A stretch of DNA of 64,000 bases, from the NCBI GenBank assembly GCA_902793695.1, contig CADBEI010000002.1, forward strand, positions 10,771 to 74,770, given 5' to 3'. Of the stretch, positions 9,471 through 19,592 are shown one piece after another. Origin of the DNA: an uncultured Pseudomonadota bacterium. Its GTDB lineage: Bacteria > Pseudomonadota > Alphaproteobacteria > RF32 > CAG-239. Under the pieces are notes generated by a model. That model did not search any database, was not told the DNA's origin, and saw only the letters and a list, made by a program, of their open reading frames with translations. The first letter of the stretch is position 1, and each line of letters begins with the position of its first letter. The position numbers and the translations under genes were made by a program.

Positions 9471-11072
9471 CTATTGCACCCTGACTACACTACAAAATAC
9501 TCCGTTGCGCCCTAATTGACTGCATACCGCGTCTCCGCTGTCCAAACTTTTGACCGGACCGATACGCAGGTGAAACAATTCCTTACCCTGTCCGTCTGCC
9601 GGAGCGTCAACCGAATAAAACGGTTCATACCCGCCCAGCAATGAAGAATAACGTCCGGATAAATCATGCCACAACGCTTCCAAATTGTTCACATTGGAGT
9701 CTGTTCCCAATTCTATCGACAGAACGTCCGAAGTTTGGCCTTCAAAGCCGCTGCCGTAACGATATTGTGATTGAATGTTTCTGAATTTCGGATCATCACT
9801 GAAACTGAGCGGAGTCATACCATTGCAATCCGCATCTTTAGCCGATGACGAAGACGAAGCAGATCCCGCGCCGAAACTGCCGGCCGCACCGTTAGGCATA
9901 TATACGCCACCATTGCTGTCAACTCTTACGGCGCCATTGCCGTTATTTGAAGCTCCGCTGCCGTTACCGGATGCATTTCCGGTTCCGTTTGCCCCGCCGC
10001 TGCCGTTTGTTATGCCGCCCGGAATTGCCGGCGCAACATCCCACTCATTACTGGTATCGGCATAGGTAACATATTGTGTTCCCTCATCATCGGAACGACG
10101 CATTTTCAAGCATACCATACGTTTACCGCTACGCATAACCATATCGCCGACACCTTCCACAATAATCAGTCGGTTATTCGGCCCTTTGGTACGAAAACCT
10201 ACCGGTGTTTCCGAGCGTTCGATAATCATTGTTACAATCGGACGCTGTACCATATTTATGGCCTTTTCGCCCAGATCTATATAAGTGAAAATATCATCAT
10301 GCCATACCCGTTCCGGTGCAATAATCACATCATCCGGATTCGGAACATAGATTTCCATATCAAAACGAAACTTTTCCGGATCCATCGGAATACTTCTGAG
10401 CCAGTCTTCTTTCAAAAAACGTCTGGTGTAGGTGGCATCAACTCTTTTATTGTTATTGTCAAATCCGATACCGCCCGAACTGCCGCCTATCTTGCCGCCC
10501 CTGGGACTACCTCCCGATGCGCCGTTTTGGTCGACAACATCAATATCTATGATGGAATTGGTAATTCTTTCGGAGTTGACGCCCTCTCCGCGAACATAAA
10601 ACACATATTTGTTACCGGATCTGCCGAAAACAATCAGGTTGGTATCGCTGCCTACGGCATAAGGCGTTACCGGATACAGCATAAGCGAACTCGGTTTGCT
10701 GATTTTTCCGCCGAAATTCGCCGGGTCACCCAGTTGTGCATCTTCAATTAATTCCCACTCCGGAAAATTAATCAAGGTCATCATACCCTCACGCAAACGA
10801 ATCGGCAACACCAAATCAGGCGACCAATAATATTTTGAATAAGCCGGCTTGCTTTGTCCTTCGCCTAAATTCTGCAGAGGATCTTGCCAAGCTTCCTGAA
10901 ACATACCGGTACCGAATCCGGTGTATGTCATATTTTGGGCAGGATAATTACCCTGTGTTTGATCTGCCGATTGGTTCAAACTGTCATCGCTGACCAAACC
11001 TGCGGCATACAGGTTTTGCATAAATAACATTCCCGTAATCGTTAATATCAATGTTTTAATGCTCTTTCTCAT
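9471..11072 (-). CDS. virB9: VirB9/CagX/TrbG-family protein with G/S/N-rich linker and C-terminal SPOR-like domain
   Basis: Signal peptide (LILTITGMLFMQNLYAAG). The N-terminal half resembles VirB9 (YYWSPDLVLPIRLREGMMTLINFPEWE..., NLIVFGRSGNKYVFYVRGEG). aa ~345-420 are a low-complexity G/S/N/A linker. The last ~80 aa look like SPOR (LSIELGTDSNVNNLEALWHDL..., FHLRIGPVKSLDSGDAVCSQLGRNGVFCSVVRV). Confidence 0.75.
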   Translation of the reverse strand: MRKSIKTLILTITGMLFMQNLYAAGLVSDDSLNQSADQTQGNYPAQNMTYTGFGTGMFQEAWQDPLQNLGEGQSKPAYSKYYWSPDLVLPIRLREGMMTLINFPEWELIEDAQLGDPANFGGKISKPSSLMLYPVTPYAVGSDTNLIVFGRSGNKYVFYVRGEGVNSERITNSIIDIDVVDQNGASGGSPRGGKIGGSSGGIGFDNNNKRVDATYTRRFLKEDWLRSIPMDPEKFRFDMEIYVPNPDDVIIAPERVWHDDIFTYIDLGEKAINMVQRPIVTMIIERSETPVGFRTKGPNNRLIIVEGVGDMVMRSGKRMVCLKMRRSDDEGTQYVTYADTSNEWDVAPAIPGGITNGSGGANGTGNASGNGSGASNNGNGAVRVDSNGGVYMPNGAAGSFGAGSASSSSSAKDADCNGMTPLSFSDDPKFRNIQSQYRYGSGFEGQTSDVLSIELGTDSNVNNLEALWHDLSGRYSSLLGGYEPFYSVDAPADGQGKELFHLRIGPVKSLDSGDAVCSQLGRNGVFCSVVRVQ

Positions 11073-11087
11073 TGTTTTATCCTAACT

Positions 11088-11840
11088 TTAATCTTTGATT
11101 TGTTTGACCGTGTATGTCATAACCGTGAATCCCACAGGATTTTTTAGTCTTTCTTTGTACGAAACGCGTTGCGGAACATACTGTATGCGCATACTGGCGC
11201 GATATCTCAATTTCTTTGGCGTATACGATGACGGCAGATAATAGTCCACGCTGTATTCAACCTGCCACACAGCCTCGGAAATTTCATTCACCGTGATGAT
11301 CGTAACATTACTGGTTAAGCCGTCCTCTTTCATTCGTTTCATCAACTTCGGGCCGGTTTCACTCATAAATTCCTGATACACAATCGGAGACGACATCTTT
11401 TGCAAATCGCCGCCGTTTTGCCACCGCGCTTCCATCTCTTCAATATCCGAAAGCAATGTCGTACGCAACAAAACATATTGACGAATAAATGTTTCCGTAA
11501 TGGATTTTTTGGCCTCCATATCGCGGCTGTACGGAACAATATTGTAGACCTGTTCGGCCTTGTTGGATAAGGTCAGTAAATACGGTTCAACCCGATACAG
11601 CGGAAGAATGGCAGATATTGTCAGCAACAAAATCAGATTGCAGCATAAACTGATGGCTGTAACAACTGCAAAGGCGCGTGCTGTCCATAAATATCTTCTT
11701 TCACTGGCATTAACCACCAAACTGTCTTCATCGCGTGCGATTTCCCGCTGAATAGCGGTACGGGCACCTTGTGCCGGACGTCTTTGTCCGGAGGCGATTA
11801 GCTTTTGCTGTGTGTTATTTACCCCTAACTGATCCGCCAT
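11088..11840 (-). CDS. virB8: VirB8-family protein, paralog 2
   Basis: 250 aa with a cytoplasmic N-terminus, a single TM (AFAVVTAISLCCNLILLLTISAILPL) and a periplasmic domain with a VirB8-like FIRQYV motif. Clearly paralogous to 12192..12944. Confidence 0.7.
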   Translation of the reverse strand: MADQLGVNNTQQKLIASGQRRPAQGARTAIQREIARDEDSLVVNASERRYLWTARAFAVVTAISLCCNLILLLTISAILPLYRVEPYLLTLSNKAEQVYNIVPYSRDMEAKKSITETFIRQYVLLRTTLLSDIEEMEARWQNGGDLQKMSSPIVYQEFMSETGPKLMKRMKEDGLTSNVTIITVNEISEAVWQVEYSVDYYLPSSYTPKKLRYRASMRIQYVPQRVSYKERLKNPVGFTVMTYTVKQIKD

Positions 11841-11855
11841 TTATTTAAATCCCGT

Positions 11856-12044
11856 CTATATTGTTTCCCAAAACCAATCCGGTACGTTTTTAATGACATC
11901 AATTTGCATACAGGCACAAGGCGACAACTTCAGCTCATTGATGTCCTTACCGATTCCCACGGCTTCCGGTTCATAATACGAACCGAACAAACTGCAAGCC
12001 GACAGAATTAAAAGTATAGCAAAAATCAAAAATTTTTTATACAT
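11856..12044 (-). CDS. virB7: Small lipoprotein, VirB7-like by size, lipobox and position
   Basis: 62 aa with signal peptide and lipobox LILSAC|S. It sits immediately upstream of virB8/virB9. No sequence motif beyond the lipobox. Confidence 0.5.
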   Translation of the reverse strand: MYKKFLIFAILLILSACSLFGSYYEPEAVGIGKDINELKLSPCACMQIDVIKNVPDWFWETI

Positions 12045-12191: not shown

Positions 12192-12944
12192 TTATTCTCT
12201 TATTTCACTTTGGTTATATTTAATCACCGTAAACCCTATCGGATTTAACAATCTGGTTCTTAACAAGCGCCGTTCGGGAATATAGGCCGGCGTTATTGAC
12301 GCTTTGTAGCGCATTGTCTTCAAGGTTAACGAACCGGATGAATTGCGCGCTTTAGACAGATTAAAAGTGGTAAACGTCACTAACCACGCCGGTGAATCTT
12401 CGCTTTCTTTGCCGATTTTATCAATCTGAACTTCGCTGGAGTAGCCGTTATCGAACATTTTATCAATTGTTTTCACGTTCTTACCGACAAAATCCCAATA
12501 AACTTCCGGTGACGACATATATTGTACAATCCCTCCCGGTCCCCAACGTGTTCGCATTTCCTGCTCATCATTAATCACCGTATTACGCACAATGATATAT
12601 TGCCGTATAAACATCTCGGTAAGTTGTTTTTCTGAAGGCATTTTTTTATCAATCGGCTCATAACGAACAACATTTTCCGAATCTTTTTGATTGATTATCA
12701 AGAGCGGTTCCACCACAATTTCGCGTGACAGTCGGAAAATTACCAAAGTAGAACTCAAAAAGAACCCGAGCGAAATGATGGCACACAAAATAACCAAACG
12801 CGACAACCATCTGAAGTAAACCTCCTTACTGGATGTTGTTTCTTGTCTGACATCGTTGATAAAATGCGGTCGGTAACCGGCATTTGATTTCCGATTACCA
12901 TCCGCTATTAAAATACGCTTTGCGCCATCTCCCAGCTGAGCCAC
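12192..12944 (-). CDS. virB8: VirB8-family protein, paralog 1
   Basis: 250 aa with the same architecture as 11088..11840 (TM VILCAIISLGFFLSSTLVIF). Shared motifs are MFIRQYIIVRNT / TFIRQYVLLRTT and NPIGFTVIKY / NPVGFTVMTY. Confidence 0.7.
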   Translation of the reverse strand: MAQLGDGAKRILIADGNRKSNAGYRPHFINDVRQETTSSKEVYFRWLSRLVILCAIISLGFFLSSTLVIFRLSREIVVEPLLIINQKDSENVVRYEPIDKKMPSEKQLTEMFIRQYIIVRNTVINDEQEMRTRWGPGGIVQYMSSPEVYWDFVGKNVKTIDKMFDNGYSSEVQIDKIGKESEDSPAWLVTFTTFNLSKARNSSGSLTLKTMRYKASITPAYIPERRLLRTRLLNPIGFTVIKYNQSEIRE

Positions 12945-12965: not shown

Positions 12966-15900
12966 TTAATAACGTGGATATACACCACAATACGGGCGCA
13001 AATGACGTTTTAAGCGACTTATACGCTCTCTGTCCTGTTCCTTAGCCGTTTCGGAAACAACTTTCCAATCGGCATAGGCTTTCTTTATTTTCTCGTCCAT
13101 TTCCGTGCAATCCAGCTCGCCTCCGTCAATCGAACATTCATCACCGATAATCATTACCAAATCTCCCGGATAGTCGTCAATACCCAGTTTTTCTTTGGCA
13201 TACTCCGGAGTATCATATTGATACAACATGGCAGAACGCATAACTTCATTACGGCGGAGATTTATGGTTTCGAGCGCCTCACCTTCGCTTTCTACTTCGT
13301 TTTCTCCTTCGCCTTCTTTTTTGACGGTTGTTGCTTTTACTTCCGACAACTTATTCATAGCGCTTGCAATCGCCGCATCTTTTTCTTCCTGCAGTTTCTG
13401 GCGCAAGCGTTTATAATCTTCCGACTGACACTCGACGAATCTTTCGATTTCTTCGGTATTTTCTTCCTCGTCAAATTTATCCATATCTATTTCGCATGCC
13501 ATATTGAAGTCTTCGCCGAACACAAAATCCGCATCTTTTAAAACTTCAGCCAATTCGAGTTCTGTGGTTTTAGCTTTTTTCTCCGCGTTGAGAAGATTAT
13601 TTTGCGTAATGCGCATTATTTCAATCTGCTCAAGATAATCGCCGAGTTGATTTTTCTCCAAGAAAACCCGATTTGTCGCATCTTTAAGCGAAGTTTCTTC
13701 TTCGTGCCCCTCTTGACCGTAGTCTTCTACTGCCGTATACAAGGCGCGTACCAAAACATCATTGAAAGTCAGACGCATAACACCGTTGGCAACTTCATCT
13801 TTGCATTCAGGAGTTTCGGCCATACATTGCGGATTGCCGTGGCATTTTGAGATGCAAGCTTCCTCATCGTGATGAATGACAATAGCCTGATTATACAGAT
13901 TTGGCAACACCGGCGGGAACCCCGAATGACGCATGGTGTCTTCTTCATTATAATATGTGATGATATTGCTGAGTTCGCTCACTTCCGTATAATCGGCACC
14001 GCCGTACGGATATACAAAATCGTAGGTATGATTATCCATCAGTGCGCTGGCTTCTTTATCATAAATTTTGATTCCCTCGCCGGTTTCCGGTTTCTCTACC
14101 CGTACTTGCAGTGCCTGGCACTCCGGTACAGCCGCAATTTTTTCGGCAACACTGGCATCTTCCACCGTCAACAGTGTAGAAAATCTCAACCACTCCGGAT
14201 GTTTGGTAACACGCGCTTCCAACGGTACCGGATATCTGACTGTTCCGCGCGTGTTCTTTTCCAACGGTGTATTCGGAACGGCATATTGGAAATTGCTGTT
14301 AATATCAATAAAGTACTGAATAGGCACGCCGGTAGACGTGTTATTCGCGTTCATATATGTTCTGCCCGTCGGCTTACCCTTCATATCGTATTCATAAGAA
14401 CGACACGGATACAAACCGGAGCGTCGAACTTCCTGCTGGGCACGAAGTGCATTGACTCTGTCTTCTTCATTTGTGCCGTTTTCAACACCGATAAGTTTAG
14501 CTAAATCAAATTGTTTCTGAACATAGGTACGCGGCAACAATATATATTTCCACCACCGCGGCATAATGGCATTTCTCGCAGCATCCTCGCCCTCAATATA
14601 GTTATCGGTGGAATTAATATTGGTATTCGGAGCGCTGAGCAATTCCTTCAAAAAGAGACGACGACTGAAGAACATAAGCTTATTCATACCGCGTTCTACC
14701 GGAATATCATCGTCCGAAACTTTATGATATATTGAAATAGCATCAAAATCATCGCGGGAAAAGTGGAAAGCTTCACGCAGGAACATACCGTCATCTCCTA
14801 TACCGCAGCCGATAGGATACGGTGCCATAAAGTCACGCGGCTGTCCGATTAGGCCCACAAAGTAACCGCCCGGTTCTTCATCATCGTCGCTCGGTTCCTT
14901 AATATTATCACAAGATTCTTGATCTCGGTCACTCTCAAAATCAAGTTCCACCGGTGCCTCTTTACATTTTTCGGCATTTTCTCCGCAGATTGATTCAAAC
15001 ACATTGTTTGACATCACGGAAGAAAAGCCCGGAATCTCCGGTAAACCGCCACATTCTGCCGGACTGAATTTGAGTAAATATTCATCAAACAGTGCACGAT
15101 GCGATTTGAGAATACTTCTGCATTTCGGAGCTTTGGTAAAGTTTACATAGTTCCTTACGGAATAATTGTAACCCATACACGGTTCTTTATATTCCTTTTC
15201 CCATTCTTCCACCTTCTTTACCAGTTTTTCACGCACGCAAGTCAAAAATTCTCCGGCTCCCGGCAATATTGTCGAAAAATCAATATTCTGGCCATTTACC
15301 GATATGGATGTAGGGCTGAATGATGCTCGAGCTGCTCTCATATTTTGGGCGGCGTTTCTCATATTCAGCATTTCGATATATTCGGCATCGCTCATATCTT
15401 TGATGTATTGATGATGGGCTTCAGCCAATTTTTCATCGAGTTCTTCTATTTTTTCTTTGCACTTTTCGATTTCATCCTCATATCTTTTGGCTTCTTCTTT
15501 GGCCTCATCTTTTTTGGTTTGAGCCGCTTCCGCTATTTCTTTGGAATCATCTTCAAGTTTTTTGAAATTCTTCGACTGCGGAGTTTCGTCCGGATTAACG
15601 TCGTCACGTCCGGCATCTTCATACAATCTGCGGTTGGCATCTTTAGCCGTTTGCGAGGCTTCTTCAACCAGTTTGGCACTTCCGACTTCACGAGTCATCT
15701 GATTATATTCGCTGTTTTTCTTGCTTAATTTTCCGGCGAATTCTTCTTTTTTCTCAACCCACTCTTTTCTCTTTTTCACCCAAGGTTCAATTTTTTTCTT
15801 ATATTTTTTATCAATTTGCACGAACATCGCATCTTGTGCTTCAATCATTTTTTTAATCTCTTTTTGTTCGTTTTCTTGATAAGTTTCCAATGCTTCTTTT

Positions 15901-18335
15901 ATTATCGGCGCATTGCTTAAACCGGCAACTTGCATCAACAAAATAAAATCAGGAACGGTTTTGATATAATCCTTTATGTTATCGTATTTACCGTTAACAT
16001 ATTGATCATAAAACTCTTTCTGATCTTTCCAAGCAACAAATTTAGAGCGCGGTTCGGCAAAATGAATCGGATTGGAATAGCATTCGCCGCCGGCAACATT
16101 CAAACCGCAGGCAAAATCTACCGCCAACACGCCCATAACCTCCTTGCCGATGGTCCAACGCAGAATATCCTCTATCTGCGCATCGGATAACATACTGTCT
16201 TGTGATTCGCCGTCTTTCGTGTCCGGAGCCTTAGCTTCTGCCTCGGCATCTTCATCAATATTATTTTTCATTTCGTTGATTTCATCCGGATCGGTGGATG
16301 CATCACGTTGAGTAATATAAATACTTGAGGCTTCCTCTTCTTCGGTTTCGCCTTCAAGCTCTTTCATTTTCTCTTCTTTTCTTCTGTCGATGGCGTCTTT
16401 ATCCGGATCCTCATTCTCGGCTGTTTCAGACTCTTTCGGTTGGTAGAAAGTCATATATTTGGAAGCTCTGGTTTTGTCGCCGAATTCCATATTTTCGGAA
16501 TCCGAACTGATTTCGACGTGTGATGTATAGTTAGCTCCTTCACTGTCGTTGGTTTCAACGGTCAATACGGTTTCTTCGTGATCGTATATTGCATTACCAT
16601 CAATCGCGGCTCGATATAGGTCAACCAAATATTGCAAAATTCCGCCAACCTTTGAGGCATCTACCGGATCTATCTTTTCCCGTATTCTTTCATTTTTATC
16701 ACTGTATTCCTCTTCGTCTAAATTTCCCTCATCAAACGCATCGATATAGTCGTCTATTCGGGCAACATAGCATTTATGTTGAGAATCACCCGGACATGCG
16801 ACATCCATTAAACCGCGCGATGCCGAAAGGTCGTCAAACGATTTTTCATTGATATAGTGACATACAACTTTACCATCAGGTACACCCTTATCGTTATGTT
16901 CTAGCGAACAACCGTTCGGACCAAACAAAGCTTCGGCCGGATCTTCATAAAACGGCGTCAACATTTGCATAACGCATTCACTTGATTTTGCCACCGTCTT
17001 GCGGCTGAGATTATGCATTTCCTTGATATAGTTGTAATTTTTATAGATATCTTCATAGCTCATAATGCGTTGCAACACATTATGAATATTTTCCGCACGC
17101 TGTAAATCTTCTTCCGCCGAGGCAATACTCGCCAAATCGGCAAAACCTTCGGCTCGACTGTCGATTACGCTGGAATATCCTTTGGCACCGTTGCTGAGTT
17201 CAAAATCACCGCCCAATAAATCGGATGGATCTTCTTGAACACTCTGGTATTTAGCCATTTCTTCTTCTAACACCCGTTGAGATACCGCCGCATCGGCAAA
17301 CACAGCATCTGCCGTCATTTTTTGCGAAACAACGGTGTTATTATAGTTGTAGTAAAGTTGTTCCAATGCGGAAGTATTATCTTCAGTACCTTCTGCTTCA
17401 TCCGGAGCTTCTTTAATTTTTGCAACGGAGGAAATTCCCATAACCGAACGATATTGTGCCAACATCGCAATCACGGTTTCATTATAAATCATTATGGTAT
17501 CATAAAGTTTCTCGGCTTTAATGGCGCTGTTCCAAAAACATACCATATCTTCGTTGTTGCCCGAACCGGAGCCGTCATTATCGCCTCCTTCATCGTTAGA
17601 ACCGGCGCAAGAGGTTAATTTAACAAAATCGCAAAATTTATCTCCAATCATACATCTTTCGTATAGGCGAAGCTGCGACAACATACTTAAATCTTCCATC
17701 TTCACCGATTGCAATTTGCTTTCCACATCACTTTTTGAAAAATCCAACGGTTCTCCCCAAAGTTCGATTTCCCTACCGCGCATTTCTTTTTGCATTTCTT
17801 TGGCAACGATGAACATCTCGATGGTTGTATCCATCTTCAGCTGTTCGCCTTTTTGGGCATATGCATACTTGGTTTGATTGTTTTGGGAAGGGTACTGGAA
17901 AAATAATCTTTCAAATGCTTTTTGCACCATATAAGGGTTACTTACTTCAACCTTTGTCATAGCACCGTTTTCATTCGGTACTTTATATTTTTTACAATTT
18001 TCGATAGTACGGGAATAGCTTATAACCTTTTGTTTTTTCTTTTCATTTTGTTTCAGCATATTGAAAATACCATCACCGAGATTGGCTATATATTTTTTAG
18101 CCAATTGCTTCACTCGAGTAACGTCGGTAACTCCGGTCAAGGTTTGTTTGTTTTCCAAGACTTCTTTAATGGAGGACGTCAGCAATGAAGCTTCTGACGG
18201 TGTGCCGCTCAAATTTGCTTCCACGCTTTGCCCCGGATTTAACGGATCGAAATCAGGCGGAATAAATGCCCAAGCGCTGCCGCAGAACACCGCACTTGTT
18301 AATAAAACTGTTATATATTTTACAATGTTACGCAT
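12966..18335 (-). CDS. ~1789-aa secreted acidic, Cys-rich, partly coiled-coil protein of unknown function
   Basis: Track ORF is 12966..18350. The ATG at 18335 (MRNIVKYITVLLTSAVFCGSAWA) follows a GAGGGAGGG RBS and gives a clean signal peptide. There are no TM bundles. D/E-rich tracts are present, with a K/E coiled-coil centre (KKYKKKIEPWVKKRKEWVEKKEEF...EIEKCKEKIEELDEKLAEAHHQY) and many Cys. Confidence 0.7.
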   Translation of the reverse strand: MRNIVKYITVLLTSAVFCGSAWAFIPPDFDPLNPGQSVEANLSGTPSEASLLTSSIKEVLENKQTLTGVTDVTRVKQLAKKYIANLGDGIFNMLKQNEKKKQKVISYSRTIENCKKYKVPNENGAMTKVEVSNPYMVQKAFERLFFQYPSQNNQTKYAYAQKGEQLKMDTTIEMFIVAKEMQKEMRGREIELWGEPLDFSKSDVESKLQSVKMEDLSMLSQLRLYERCMIGDKFCDFVKLTSCAGSNDEGGDNDGSGSGNNEDMVCFWNSAIKAEKLYDTIMIYNETVIAMLAQYRSVMGISSVAKIKEAPDEAEGTEDNTSALEQLYYNYNNTVVSQKMTADAVFADAAVSQRVLEEEMAKYQSVQEDPSDLLGGDFELSNGAKGYSSVIDSRAEGFADLASIASAEEDLQRAENIHNVLQRIMSYEDIYKNYNYIKEMHNLSRKTVAKSSECVMQMLTPFYEDPAEALFGPNGCSLEHNDKGVPDGKVVCHYINEKSFDDLSASRGLMDVACPGDSQHKCYVARIDDYIDAFDEGNLDEEEYSDKNERIREKIDPVDASKVGGILQYLVDLYRAAIDGNAIYDHEETVLTVETNDSEGANYTSHVEISSDSENMEFGDKTRASKYMTFYQPKESETAENEDPDKDAIDRRKEEKMKELEGETEEEEASSIYITQRDASTDPDEINEMKNNIDEDAEAEAKAPDTKDGESQDSMLSDAQIEDILRWTIGKEVMGVLAVDFACGLNVAGGECYSNPIHFAEPRSKFVAWKDQKEFYDQYVNGKYDNIKDYIKTVPDFILLMQVAGLSNAPIIKEALETYQENEQKEIKKMIEAQDAMFVQIDKKYKKKIEPWVKKRKEWVEKKEEFAGKLSKKNSEYNQMTREVGSAKLVEEASQTAKDANRRLYEDAGRDDVNPDETPQSKNFKKLEDDSKEIAEAAQTKKDEAKEEAKRYEDEIEKCKEKIEELDEKLAEAHHQYIKDMSDAEYIEMLNMRNAAQNMRAARASFSPTSISVNGQNIDFSTILPGAGEFLTCVREKLVKKVEEWEKEYKEPCMGYNYSVRNYVNFTKAPKCRSILKSHRALFDEYLLKFSPAECGGLPEIPGFSSVMSNNVFESICGENAEKCKEAPVELDFESDRDQESCDNIKEPSDDDEEPGGYFVGLIGQPRDFMAPYPIGCGIGDDGMFLREAFHFSRDDFDAISIYHKVSDDDIPVERGMNKLMFFSRRLFLKELLSAPNTNINSTDNYIEGEDAARNAIMPRWWKYILLPRTYVQKQFDLAKLIGVENGTNEEDRVNALRAQQEVRRSGLYPCRSYEYDMKGKPTGRTYMNANNTSTGVPIQYFIDINSNFQYAVPNTPLEKNTRGTVRYPVPLEARVTKHPEWLRFSTLLTVEDASVAEKIAAVPECQALQVRVEKPETGEGIKIYDKEASALMDNHTYDFVYPYGGADYTEVSELSNIITYYNEEDTMRHSGFPPVLPNLYNQAIVIHHDEEACISKCHGNPQCMAETPECKDEVANGVMRLTFNDVLVRALYTAVEDYGQEGHEEETSLKDATNRVFLEKNQLGDYLEQIEIMRITQNNLLNAEKKAKTTELELAEVLKDADFVFGEDFNMACEIDMDKFDEEENTEEIERFVECQSEDYKRLRQKLQEEKDAAIASAMNKLSEVKATTVKKEGEGENEVESEGEALETINLRRNEVMRSAMLYQYDTPEYAKEKLGIDDYPGDLVMIIGDECSIDGGELDCTEMDEKIKKAYADWKVVSETAKEQDRERISRLKRHLRPYCGVYPRY

Positions 18336-18350
18336 TGTACCCTCCCTCAA

Positions 18351-19592
18351 TTAAAAGAACTCTTTTACCTTGCTTTTGATGGTTTCTTTTGCCGTTCTTT
18401 TTGATTTTGACAGCCAATCTTCTTTTGTCATCATATAATCATCCAAATTAAACTTGGTTATATCTTTTTCATAGTCGCGCAGTGCATATTTGTTGTCCCA
18501 TTTTTGCATTTCCGCCGTTGTATCCAATTGTATCATTGCCAACAAAATTTCCAAATAACCGACGGCAACTATGGAATTTTGCATCTCAACGCATTGACGC
18601 AATCCCATTGCGCCGAACACTCCGTCTGCTCTTAATGATTCATCGGCACAAGATATGCTGCGTTCATTGGTTTCCTTAATGCTTACTTGTGTACTCACAA
18701 CCGTTTCCAACGCATTTTTAACTGCGTCATAGTATTCTCTCTGACGTTCTTTCACTACTCGACGAATATTCTCCGGATTTGCTGGTTCGTCTTCTTCCAA
18801 AAACAGTTTACTGATAACCGTTTTGTACATTTCCTTTTCTTCTTTGTCCGGATCGACATCAAACAATTTCATCAACTCGGTCTGCATTTTATCCGTCATA
18901 TTTTTCTCGGAATATTTTGCTTTTGCTTTTTCAATTTGCTTTTGCAGTTTTTCCATTCTCTCTTTGGATTTTTTAACTTTCGGAGTATCCAACACTTCGG
19001 TTTCGTCGTTTTGCTGCATTTGTTCGGCCAAATCGGCGATTGATTTATCCAGAGCGTCCAATTGAGCCACTCTATCCGGAGTAGACTCTTGGGCAATCAA
19101 CGCATCCAGAGCATTACGTTGCGAAACAAGGATACTCATTTGCTTTTGCATTTCCACTTTTTTATCAAGTTTGGCTTTTTCTGCCGCTTCAATTTCCGCT
19201 TCCATCTGTTTTTTGTGGTTAGCATAATCTTTACTTAAGTCATTCAACTGATCGACAAAAGTCTGCAACATCTCGTCGGCAGAATAATCGGAAGCCTTAT
19301 ATTGTCCTTTAGCCGCGGCAATGGCGACATCGGCTGATTCCTCGACAACATCCTTAAACATTTTCATACTTTCATTATTGCCGGCTTGCAGAGTTTTCTT
19401 ATTCAACTGCTCCATAATGTTGGCAGTTATGGTTTCCTGATTATCACTGTCCTTGAAAATCTTTTTAGCCAAATCCTCCAGCAATGTGGTGATTTCCAAA
19501 AAAGCCAGTGCCCGCGCCGGCGGCGTGTATATACAGAATGAACCCAACAAATATACAACGAGCAATAATGCTCCCTTTTTACTTATTTTCAT
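18351..19592 (-). CDS. Secreted coiled-coil protein, unknown (possible VirB5/TrbJ analog)
   Basis: Track ORF extends to 19706. The ATG at 19592 (MKISKKGALLLVVYLLGSFCIYTPPARA) follows AGGAGG and overlaps the upstream gene by 14 nt. The sequence is K/E/Q-rich and helical. Confidence 0.6.
   Translation of the reverse strand: MKISKKGALLLVVYLLGSFCIYTPPARALAFLEITTLLEDLAKKIFKDSDNQETITANIMEQLNKKTLQAGNNESMKMFKDVVEESADVAIAAAKGQYKASDYSADEMLQTFVDQLNDLSKDYANHKKQMEAEIEAAEKAKLDKKVEMQKQMSILVSQRNALDALIAQESTPDRVAQLDALDKSIADLAEQMQQNDETEVLDTPKVKKSKERMEKLQKQIEKAKAKYSEKNMTDKMQTELMKLFDVDPDKEEKEMYKTVISKLFLEEDEPANPENIRRVVKERQREYYDAVKNALETVVSTQVSIKETNERSISCADESLRADGVFGAMGLRQCVEMQNSIVAVGYLEILLAMIQLDTTAEMQKWDNKYALRDYEKDITKFNLDDYMMTKEDWLSKSKRTAKETIKSKVKEFF

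Follow-up and report, generated by a model that had tools for sequence, protein, structure and literature searches.

A giant Sec-exported protein kept beside virB8 in the rvh-like type IV secretion locus of uncultured gut and rumen Alphaproteobacteria: a candidate accessory subunit

The architecture of type IV secretion systems (T4SSs) is known from few model systems, namely R388/pKM101, Cag, Dot/Icm and F. The Rickettsiales vir homolog (rvh) machine, which the system described here resembles, has as its hallmarks a duplicated VirB8 around a VirB7-like protein, a detached multicopy large VirB6, no VirB5, and duplicated VirB4 and VirB9 (PMC11077975). The window analyzed in this work is a stretch of 64,000 nucleotides (nt) from an uncultured alphaproteobacterium (contig CADBEI010000002.1 of assembly GCA_902793695.1, positions 10,771 to 74,770), and carries a VirB-type T4SS operon on its minus strand. 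Immediately before virB8, this operon encodes a protein of 1789 amino acids (aa), hereafter referred to as the giant protein. With a little better than even confidence, it is regarded here as a lineage-specific accessory structural subunit that belongs to the periplasmic or outer part of a chromosomal rvh-like VirB-type T4SS.

Three of the rvh hallmarks are found in this machine: two VirB8 copies flank a VirB7-like lipoprotein, a multicopy VirB6 is encoded away from the virB8–virB11 genes, and no protein matching PF07996 (VirB5/TrbJ) was detected. However, VirB4 and VirB9 are each encoded only once (at a single PF03135 and a single PF03524 locus, respectively) in a genome that is 99.8% complete; therefore, the system is rvh-like rather than rvh.

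The VirB6 genes reside on contig C32 of the source genome, where four tandem open reading frames (ORFs) with similarity to TrbL/VirB6 and with five to eight predicted transmembrane (TM) segments each were identified. One of these ORFs exceeds the TrbL cut-off of Pfam, the other three match more weakly, and next in the row comes a fifth polytopic ORF, 1122 aa long. In the array sequence (locus L005, 1099–13427), the polytopic ORFs of 560, 642, 458, 631 and 1122 aa are interleaved with ORFs of 265 and 333 aa, and the 1122-aa product has a long tail behind an initial 420 residues that contain about 8–10 hydrophobic segments. The TrbL matches of the source genome are confined to this contig, and VirD4 is encoded on contig C20. 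Tandem VirB6 arrays are also present in 11 of the 12 congeners and in genomes from two other families. The machine does possess VirB6, in the form of a detached multicopy array like that of the Rickettsiales. The original prediction, made from the letters of the window, had called VirB6 apparently missing and its absence functionally puzzling. The first statement is right for the operon, in which no polytopic protein was found by a Kyte–Doolittle scan, but not for the genome, and the puzzle is dissolved by the four or five polytopic paralogs on C32. To our knowledge, no protein like the giant protein has been described for rvh.

The gene and its export signal are as follows:
12966–18335, minus strand: coding sequence of the giant protein, 1789 aa, stop codon at 12966–12968 (ORF list, translation, ribosome-binding site, ATG, substitution rates, metatranscriptome)
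18267–18335, minus strand: Sec signal peptide, residues 1–23, predicted cleavage after AWA; the sole hydrophobic segment, with an unconserved Cys18

The ATG start codon, at position 18335, stands a few bases after the ribosome-binding site GAGGGAGGG, and the same Met is used as the start by close homologs. Against three relatives of 75–81% identity, the ratio of nonsynonymous to synonymous substitution rates (dN/dS) is 0.08–0.11 over the full length of the gene, and it is 0.2 or lower in all 100-codon windows with unsaturated dS. Gut metatranscriptome contigs are 98–99% identical to the window across the giant gene and its neighbors, DNA carry-over in the library being possible. Because of the low dN/dS over the whole length and the nearly identical metatranscriptome contigs, the giant gene is considered real, intact and under purifying selection.

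The signal peptide, MRNIVKYITVLLTSAVFCGSAWA followed by Phe, ends with an AXA site, and the Kyte–Doolittle scan revealed no hydrophobic segment beyond it in the giant protein. The expectation of an exported 1789-aa protein with a clean signal peptide and without a TM bundle was thus borne out, and no hidden VirB6-like domain emerged. A lipoprotein with Cys18 in a lipobox was considered and rejected, since close homologs have Ser in place of Cys18. An Arg-rich C-terminal T4SS signal was likewise ruled out, on the grounds that homologs do not retain the positive charge and that export is by the Sec route. The protein contains 33 Cys (1.8%), 19% Asp plus Glu and 12% Lys plus Arg, and both acidic tracts pointed out beforehand, GETEEEEASS and EPSDDDEEPGG, are present. 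The label "Cys-rich" fits by the standard of exported bacterial proteins, while the content is modest in absolute terms. These features show a protein that is predicted to be exported by the Sec pathway and to have no membrane anchor.

The association with the T4SS, which had been proposed from the position of the gene, holds throughout the lineage. The giant gene is tightly packed between a block of secreted-protein genes and virB8, with spacers of 15 nt and 21 nt. At all 39 loci fetched, the homolog directly precedes VirB8-VirB8-VirB9-VirB10, insofar as the contig covers these genes, and where upstream sequence is available, VirB4 and the secreted-protein block come before it. Using a profile of the C-terminal two thirds of the protein, the family was found in 197 of 201 genomes of the order, representing all 22 genera sampled. 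An exhaustive protein search with the same profile gave 375 clusters at 50% identity (E ≤ 0.001), 212 of which have E ≤ 1e-30; the matches listed are the best 150. Wherever a source is named, it is an uncultured "Alphaproteobacteria bacterium" genome from the rumen or gut. The 14 close to mid-distance homologs are 1236–1789 aa long, and the length across the loci ranges from 1236 to 1865 aa. Gene order and genome counts show that the giant gene has, to all appearance, been inherited together with the T4SS machine throughout the whole order. Two loci have irregular frames: in L011 (9998–15048), from a rumen metagenome-assembled genome, the homolog is broken after 717 codons and the similarity continues to the end, whereas in L012 (10001–14860) the frame extends beyond the usual C-terminus to give 1619 aa. 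Frameshifts or assembly errors would account for both.

In a class-wide sample of 151 genera, the C-terminal profile matched in five other families only, the inclusion of Rickettsiales in the sample being uncertain. Four of the five matches were fetched and proved to be "mini" proteins of 527–714 aa, all without TM segments and with a Cys 4–5 residues from the C-terminus; a signal peptide was recognized in three. Three of the minis are encoded directly upstream of virB8, and the fourth ends a VirB2-VirB3-VirB4-[four secreted proteins] cluster. When aligned to the giant form by hhalign, the mini form matches over the C-terminal domain with a probability of 99.6% (E-value, 2e-24). When genomes of the whole phylum were searched with the mini profile, there were no matches, not even in the source genome itself. 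The giant and mini forms agree in having no TM segment, a W block (described below), a C-terminal helical domain, a Cys 4–7 residues from the end and a place in a VirB-type cluster, and on these sequence features they are assigned to one family. None of the relatives of the mini form bears a name other than "hypothetical protein", and the giant/mini family is new and wholly unannotated. In locus L051, from another alphaproteobacterial family, the mini (9488–11260, minus strand) and a secreted neighbor of 262 aa (13047–13835, minus strand) have signal peptides with identical first 16 residues (MLKKQLILTGALTAVL); the 5′ ends may have been duplicated, or homogenized by gene conversion, not long ago within the secreted-protein block.

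The giant protein evolves much faster than the machine beside which it is encoded, as seen from the amino acid identities in two genome pairs:
L010: VirB4, 95%; VirB8, 80–88%; VirB9, 72%; giant protein, 46%
L013: VirB4, 92%; VirB8, 71–80%; VirB9, 68%; giant protein, 28%

In the same pairs, the five secreted neighbors diverge far faster than the core machine as well. Fast divergence under purifying selection is more in keeping with a component at the periphery, facing the environment or a partner, than with a central part of the channel.

Comparison of the mini, 1240-aa and 1789-aa forms allowed the conserved core to be separated from the additions. Structures were predicted by AlphaFold 2 (AF2) with a 26-sequence alignment for two overlapping segments, residues 24–1150 and 712–1789. 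The second model is usable (predicted local distance difference test (pLDDT), 76.5; predicted template modeling score (pTM), 0.71). From the N-terminus to the C-terminus, the following parts were recognized:
17151–18266, minus strand: N-terminal helical region, residues 24–395 (alignments, Cys table, low-confidence AF2; the mini profile starts only at residue 396)
16929–17150, minus strand: core block 1, residues 396–469 (match to the mini-homolog profile, E 6e-9; invariant columns)
16758–16907, minus strand: small beta domain, residues 477–526 (AF2 strands, pLDDT ~80; four co-occurring Cys)
16203–16538, minus strand: acidic linker with GETEEEEASS, residues 600–711 (composition, gap profile, pLDDT < 50)
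15927–16166, minus strand: core block 2, the "W block", residues 724–803 (best-conserved stretch; mini-homolog match, E 7e-10)
15321–15908, minus strand: antiparallel helical hairpin, residues 810–907 and 919–1005 (second AF2 model, pLDDT mostly 85–95)
14865–15308, minus strand: variable Cys-containing helical region with the EPSDDDEEPGG tract, residues 1010–1157 (low conservation, many gaps)
14406–14864, minus strand: core block 3, residues 1158–1310 (invariant columns)
13782–14405, minus strand: beta-rich insertion domain, residues 1311–1518 (AF2 strands; lost in the 1236–1242-aa homologs)
13008–13781, minus strand: core block 4, C-terminal helical domain, residues 1519–1776 (hhalign of mini versus giant; AF2 pLDDT ~75–90)
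12969–13007, minus strand: C-terminal tail RHLRPYCGVYPRY, with the P-Y-C-x-x-Y motif as the family hallmark

According to this comparison, blocks 1, W and 3, the C-terminal helical domain and the Cys 4–7 residues from the C-terminus form a conserved core of about 550 residues, which the minis represent as a protein in its own right, whereas residues 24–395, 477–526, 600–711, 810–1005, 1010–1157 and 1311–1518 are additions in the source lineage. Core block 1 is a helix with invariant H418-N419 and S451-x-x-C454. The W block carries the motif W727-x-x-G730...W769-x-D771...F775-Y776...Y779...K783-Y784-x-N786...Y790, and block 3 the motif F-V-G...D1168...P1172...R-E-x-F-H-F...D1196...P1259-x-x-W1262. 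The mini profile gave block 3 no score, although its LPP-x-K/R-E and P-x-x-W motifs are visible by eye in the minis. The hallmark of the tail is conserved in 25 of the 26 aligned giants and in all four minis. Two distant homologs, in L035 (7859–11965) and L041 (276–3026), have no hallmark C-terminal Cys, and their tails read PYRAKYF and PYQARYF, respectively.

Among the additions, the N-terminal region precedes the first block that can be aligned with the minis; it is conserved among the giants, including the C228/C235 pair, and was modeled as mostly helical with low confidence. The acidic linker at 600–711 is poorly conserved, missing in the 1240-aa forms and probably disordered. The central K/E coiled coil of the original prediction corresponds to the hairpin, the two antiparallel helices of which comprise 98 and 87 residues and would extend for about 13–14 nm (at 0.15 nm per residue in the AF2 model); it has no counterpart in the minis. 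The tip of the hairpin, YEDAGRDDVNPDETPQSKNF (residues 905–924), is charged and polar. An alpha-pore-forming toxin of the ClyA/AhlB/SmhB type was tried as an identification and dismissed, as there is no hydrophobic head or tongue and the hairpin tip is polar; the Foldseek matches to such toxins have E-values of 0.13 or worse and TM-scores of at most 0.39.

The Cys residues are gained and lost by twos or fours, along with the domains that contain them. The four in the beta mini-domain (476, 492, 514 and 522) come and go jointly across homologs, the insertion domain holds the C1311/C1406 pair and a four-Cys cluster (1494/1498/1504/1511), the 228/235 pair goes with the N-terminal region, and the pairs in the region 1010–1157 are lineage-specific. 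Such co-occurrence is what disulfide bonding of an exported protein would lead one to expect, and two genes for DsbA-like (Thioredoxin_4) proteins were found in the source genome. An intramolecular C454–C1783 disulfide is merely hinted at and was not adopted: the L035 protein lacks both residues, but that of L036 lacks C454 and keeps the C-terminal Cys.

Database searches revealed no known family or fold, which agrees with the lack of any recognized motif at first reading. The giant protein matches no Pfam or NCBIfam family, no Pfam domain was found in ten distant family members, and the 26 aligned C-terminal segments together with ten distant full-length members gave only coiled-coil noise in Pfam and NCBIfam. 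Sequence searches of the PDB with the single protein and three profiles likewise gave coiled-coil noise only, e.g., the ClpB middle domain and SMC. Foldseek searches, in which both AF2 models were compared with the PDB and the second model with BFVD, are dominated by the long hairpin and returned long-helix matches only (E 0.03 or worse). These non-significant matches include SMC arms, the dynein stalk, chemoreceptors, AhlB/SmhB and the ClpB middle domain. Literature searches on the T4SS of the source lineage found nothing relevant.

In the order of transcription, the operon begins with three VirB2-like pilins, a secreted protein of 149 aa, VirB3 and VirB4. Secreted proteins of 173, 224, 523, 400 and 451 aa follow, and then the giant gene. 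Downstream of it are VirB8, a 62-aa lipoprotein ORF, a second VirB8 and VirB9 with a SPOR domain, and the operon ends with a 1411-aa beta-flower protein, a 1400-aa VirB10 and VirB11. The closest neighbors are located as follows:
18351–19706, minus strand: upstream gene for the 451-aa secreted protein, whose stop is 15 nt before the start codon of the giant gene
12192–12944, minus strand: virB8, first copy, 21 nt downstream of the giant gene (Pfam VirB8, E 9e-12); the invariant neighbor at all loci
11088–11840: second virB8 (Pfam)

The giant protein and the five other secreted proteins together fill the canonical virB5–virB7 interval. In close and mid-distance relatives, the 451-aa gene is likewise present at the locus of the giant gene; its product was considered as a paralog of the giant protein and discarded, there being no homology. 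The 62-aa ORF (MYKKFLIFAILLILSAC..., window ~11850–12040, minus strand) lies between the two virB8 copies and has an LSAC lipobox, and a 62-aa gene occupies the equivalent position in L016. From its sequence and place it is taken as a VirB7-like lipoprotein, which gives the order VirB8-VirB7-VirB8-VirB9. The metatranscriptome contigs skip 485 nt (window 22708–23194) within the genes for the 224- and 173-aa secreted proteins and 75 nt (window 21140–21216) within that for the 523-aa protein. It is likely that both skips reflect strain-level length variation in low-complexity secreted-protein genes.

Based on its export and strict linkage to the T4SS, a periplasmic or extracellular structural role, or one at the surface, is the best reading of the giant protein, as the original prediction had also held. 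If it is an accessory subunit, its conserved core would, after export and disulfide formation, dock on the periplasmic part of the machine, where VirB8, the loops of VirB6 and the VirB9/VirB10 ring are candidate partners. The additions, i.e., the N-terminal helices, the acidic linkers, the 13–14 nm hairpin and the beta-rich Cys domains, would then project as a peripheral, fast-evolving part, and the role may be comparable to that of the additional subunits with which the Cag and Dot/Icm machines are equipped in a species-specific manner.

Several points weigh against this reading. Pfam, NCBIfam, PDB and Foldseek searches found no likeness in sequence or structure to any known T4SS subunit. Association with the machine and location, whether in the periplasm, at the outer membrane or on the cell surface, are what we infer, and fast evolution with a Sec signal would equally fit a secreted substrate or an adhesin. 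DsbB was not found in the source genome and the habitat of the organism is anoxic, which bears on how the disulfides would be formed. The AF2 model of residues 24–1150 is of low confidence (pLDDT, 57.6; pTM, 0.37).

It is possible, albeit rather doubtful, that the giant protein is a functional analog of VirB5, that is, a stalk-tip or pilus-nucleating subunit or tip adhesin, which would sit on the VirB6 pentamer and be carried outward by the VirB2 pilus to the target cell. PF07996 has no match in the giant protein, none in the source genome at E ≤ 10 and none above the cut-off in ten genomes that carry the giant family. The system has three VirB2 paralogs, and the gene for this secreted, largely helical and fast-evolving protein lies in the canonical virB5–virB7 interval. 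However, the giant protein is eight times the size of VirB5 and resembles it in neither sequence nor fold, and the five other secreted proteins of the interval are equal or better candidates. Sub-threshold PF07996 matches (E 0.001–0.009) do occur in relatives, in ORFs of 362, 747 and 647 aa (G013:C20:2602-4222; G049:C1:265974-266213), but these are too short for homologs of the giant protein. They may be homologs of the secreted proteins encoded upstream of the giant gene and, if so, a VirB5-like role may lie there. Moreover, rvh systems function without a VirB5 analog (PMC11077975).

A broader proposal, which we put forward only tentatively, is that the ~550-residue core is an unrecognized obligatory subunit of a VirB5-less class of alphaproteobacterial T4SSs, in a stalk-tip, pilus-nucleating or target-contact role, and that in the gut and rumen lineage it was elaborated, along with VirB10 in its split giant form, so that a long appendage exposed to other cells and contacting them arose.

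It is improbable that the giant protein is no machine part at all and serves as a Sec-dependent substrate or toxin freed from the periplasm by the T4SS, as in Ptl and pertussis toxin. Such a protein could well be large, acidic, equipped with a Sec signal and quick to diverge, and the hairpin weakly resembles the alpha-pore-forming toxins AhlB and SmhB in Foldseek; yet these hits (E 0.05 or worse) are those of generic coiled coils, the hairpin tip is not hydrophobic, and Pfam and NCBIfam scans detected no toxin or enzyme domain. Effectors are not typically conserved so strictly, as a single copy at one operon slot throughout an order and with minis in other families.

Still less probable is an envelope or surface protein, e.g., an adhesin or an element of cell-surface architecture, which is merely co-transcribed with the T4SS. 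The function of the giant protein being unknown, this would fit, but the spacers of 15–21 nt among T4SS genes and the position kept in other families argue otherwise. Finally, replacement of VirB6 as the inner channel or stalk base is hardly credible: the gene does take the canonical virB6 position in an operon without a polytopic gene, but the giant protein has no TM segment and the C32 array supplies VirB6.

The accessory subunit that we favor can be set against several known components. With VirB6/TrbL (PF04610) the giant protein has only the canonical position in the gene order in common; VirB6 is polytopic, with at least five TM helices, whereas the giant protein has none and does not match the TrbL profile. 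The VirB5/TrbJ family (PF07996; TraC of pKM101, TrwJ of R388) is closer in that its members are Sec-exported, rich in helices, encoded between virB4 and virB8 and expected to evolve quickly, as the giant protein does. In contrast to the small (~220 aa) exported helical bundle with a globular appendage that defines VirB5, the giant protein is a multi-domain protein with extra beta domains and a long hairpin. TraN of F-type systems is a Cys-rich outer-membrane mating-pair stabilizer and, similar to the giant protein, is Sec-exported and T4SS-associated and has many conserved Cys. The giant protein differs from it in having no Pfam match, in its acidic linkers and hairpin, and in belonging to a T4SS of the VirB rather than the F type.

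The giant family is a core gene of an abundant, uncultured alphaproteobacterial order of the gut and rumen, whose genomes measure ~1.5 Mb. If it is a machine subunit, it would be a new building block for the T4SS parts list and would help to explain how an rvh-like machine is assembled without VirB5. Its closest analogy appears to be a functional one, with the lineage-specific exported accessory proteins of Cag and Dot/Icm. Cag3/CagM/CagT and CagH/CagI/CagL of H. pylori and DotF/DotG/Dis of Legionella are likewise exported, encoded in the locus and absent from the minimal VirB set, and they add periplasmic or surface structure. The giant protein differs from them in having no similarity of sequence or fold, in being far larger and in a core that is common to several alphaproteobacterial families. 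CagH, CagI and CagL have a common conserved C-terminal motif that is needed for their function (PMC3164655), and the P-Y-C-x-x-Y tail of the giant protein is a parallel to it.

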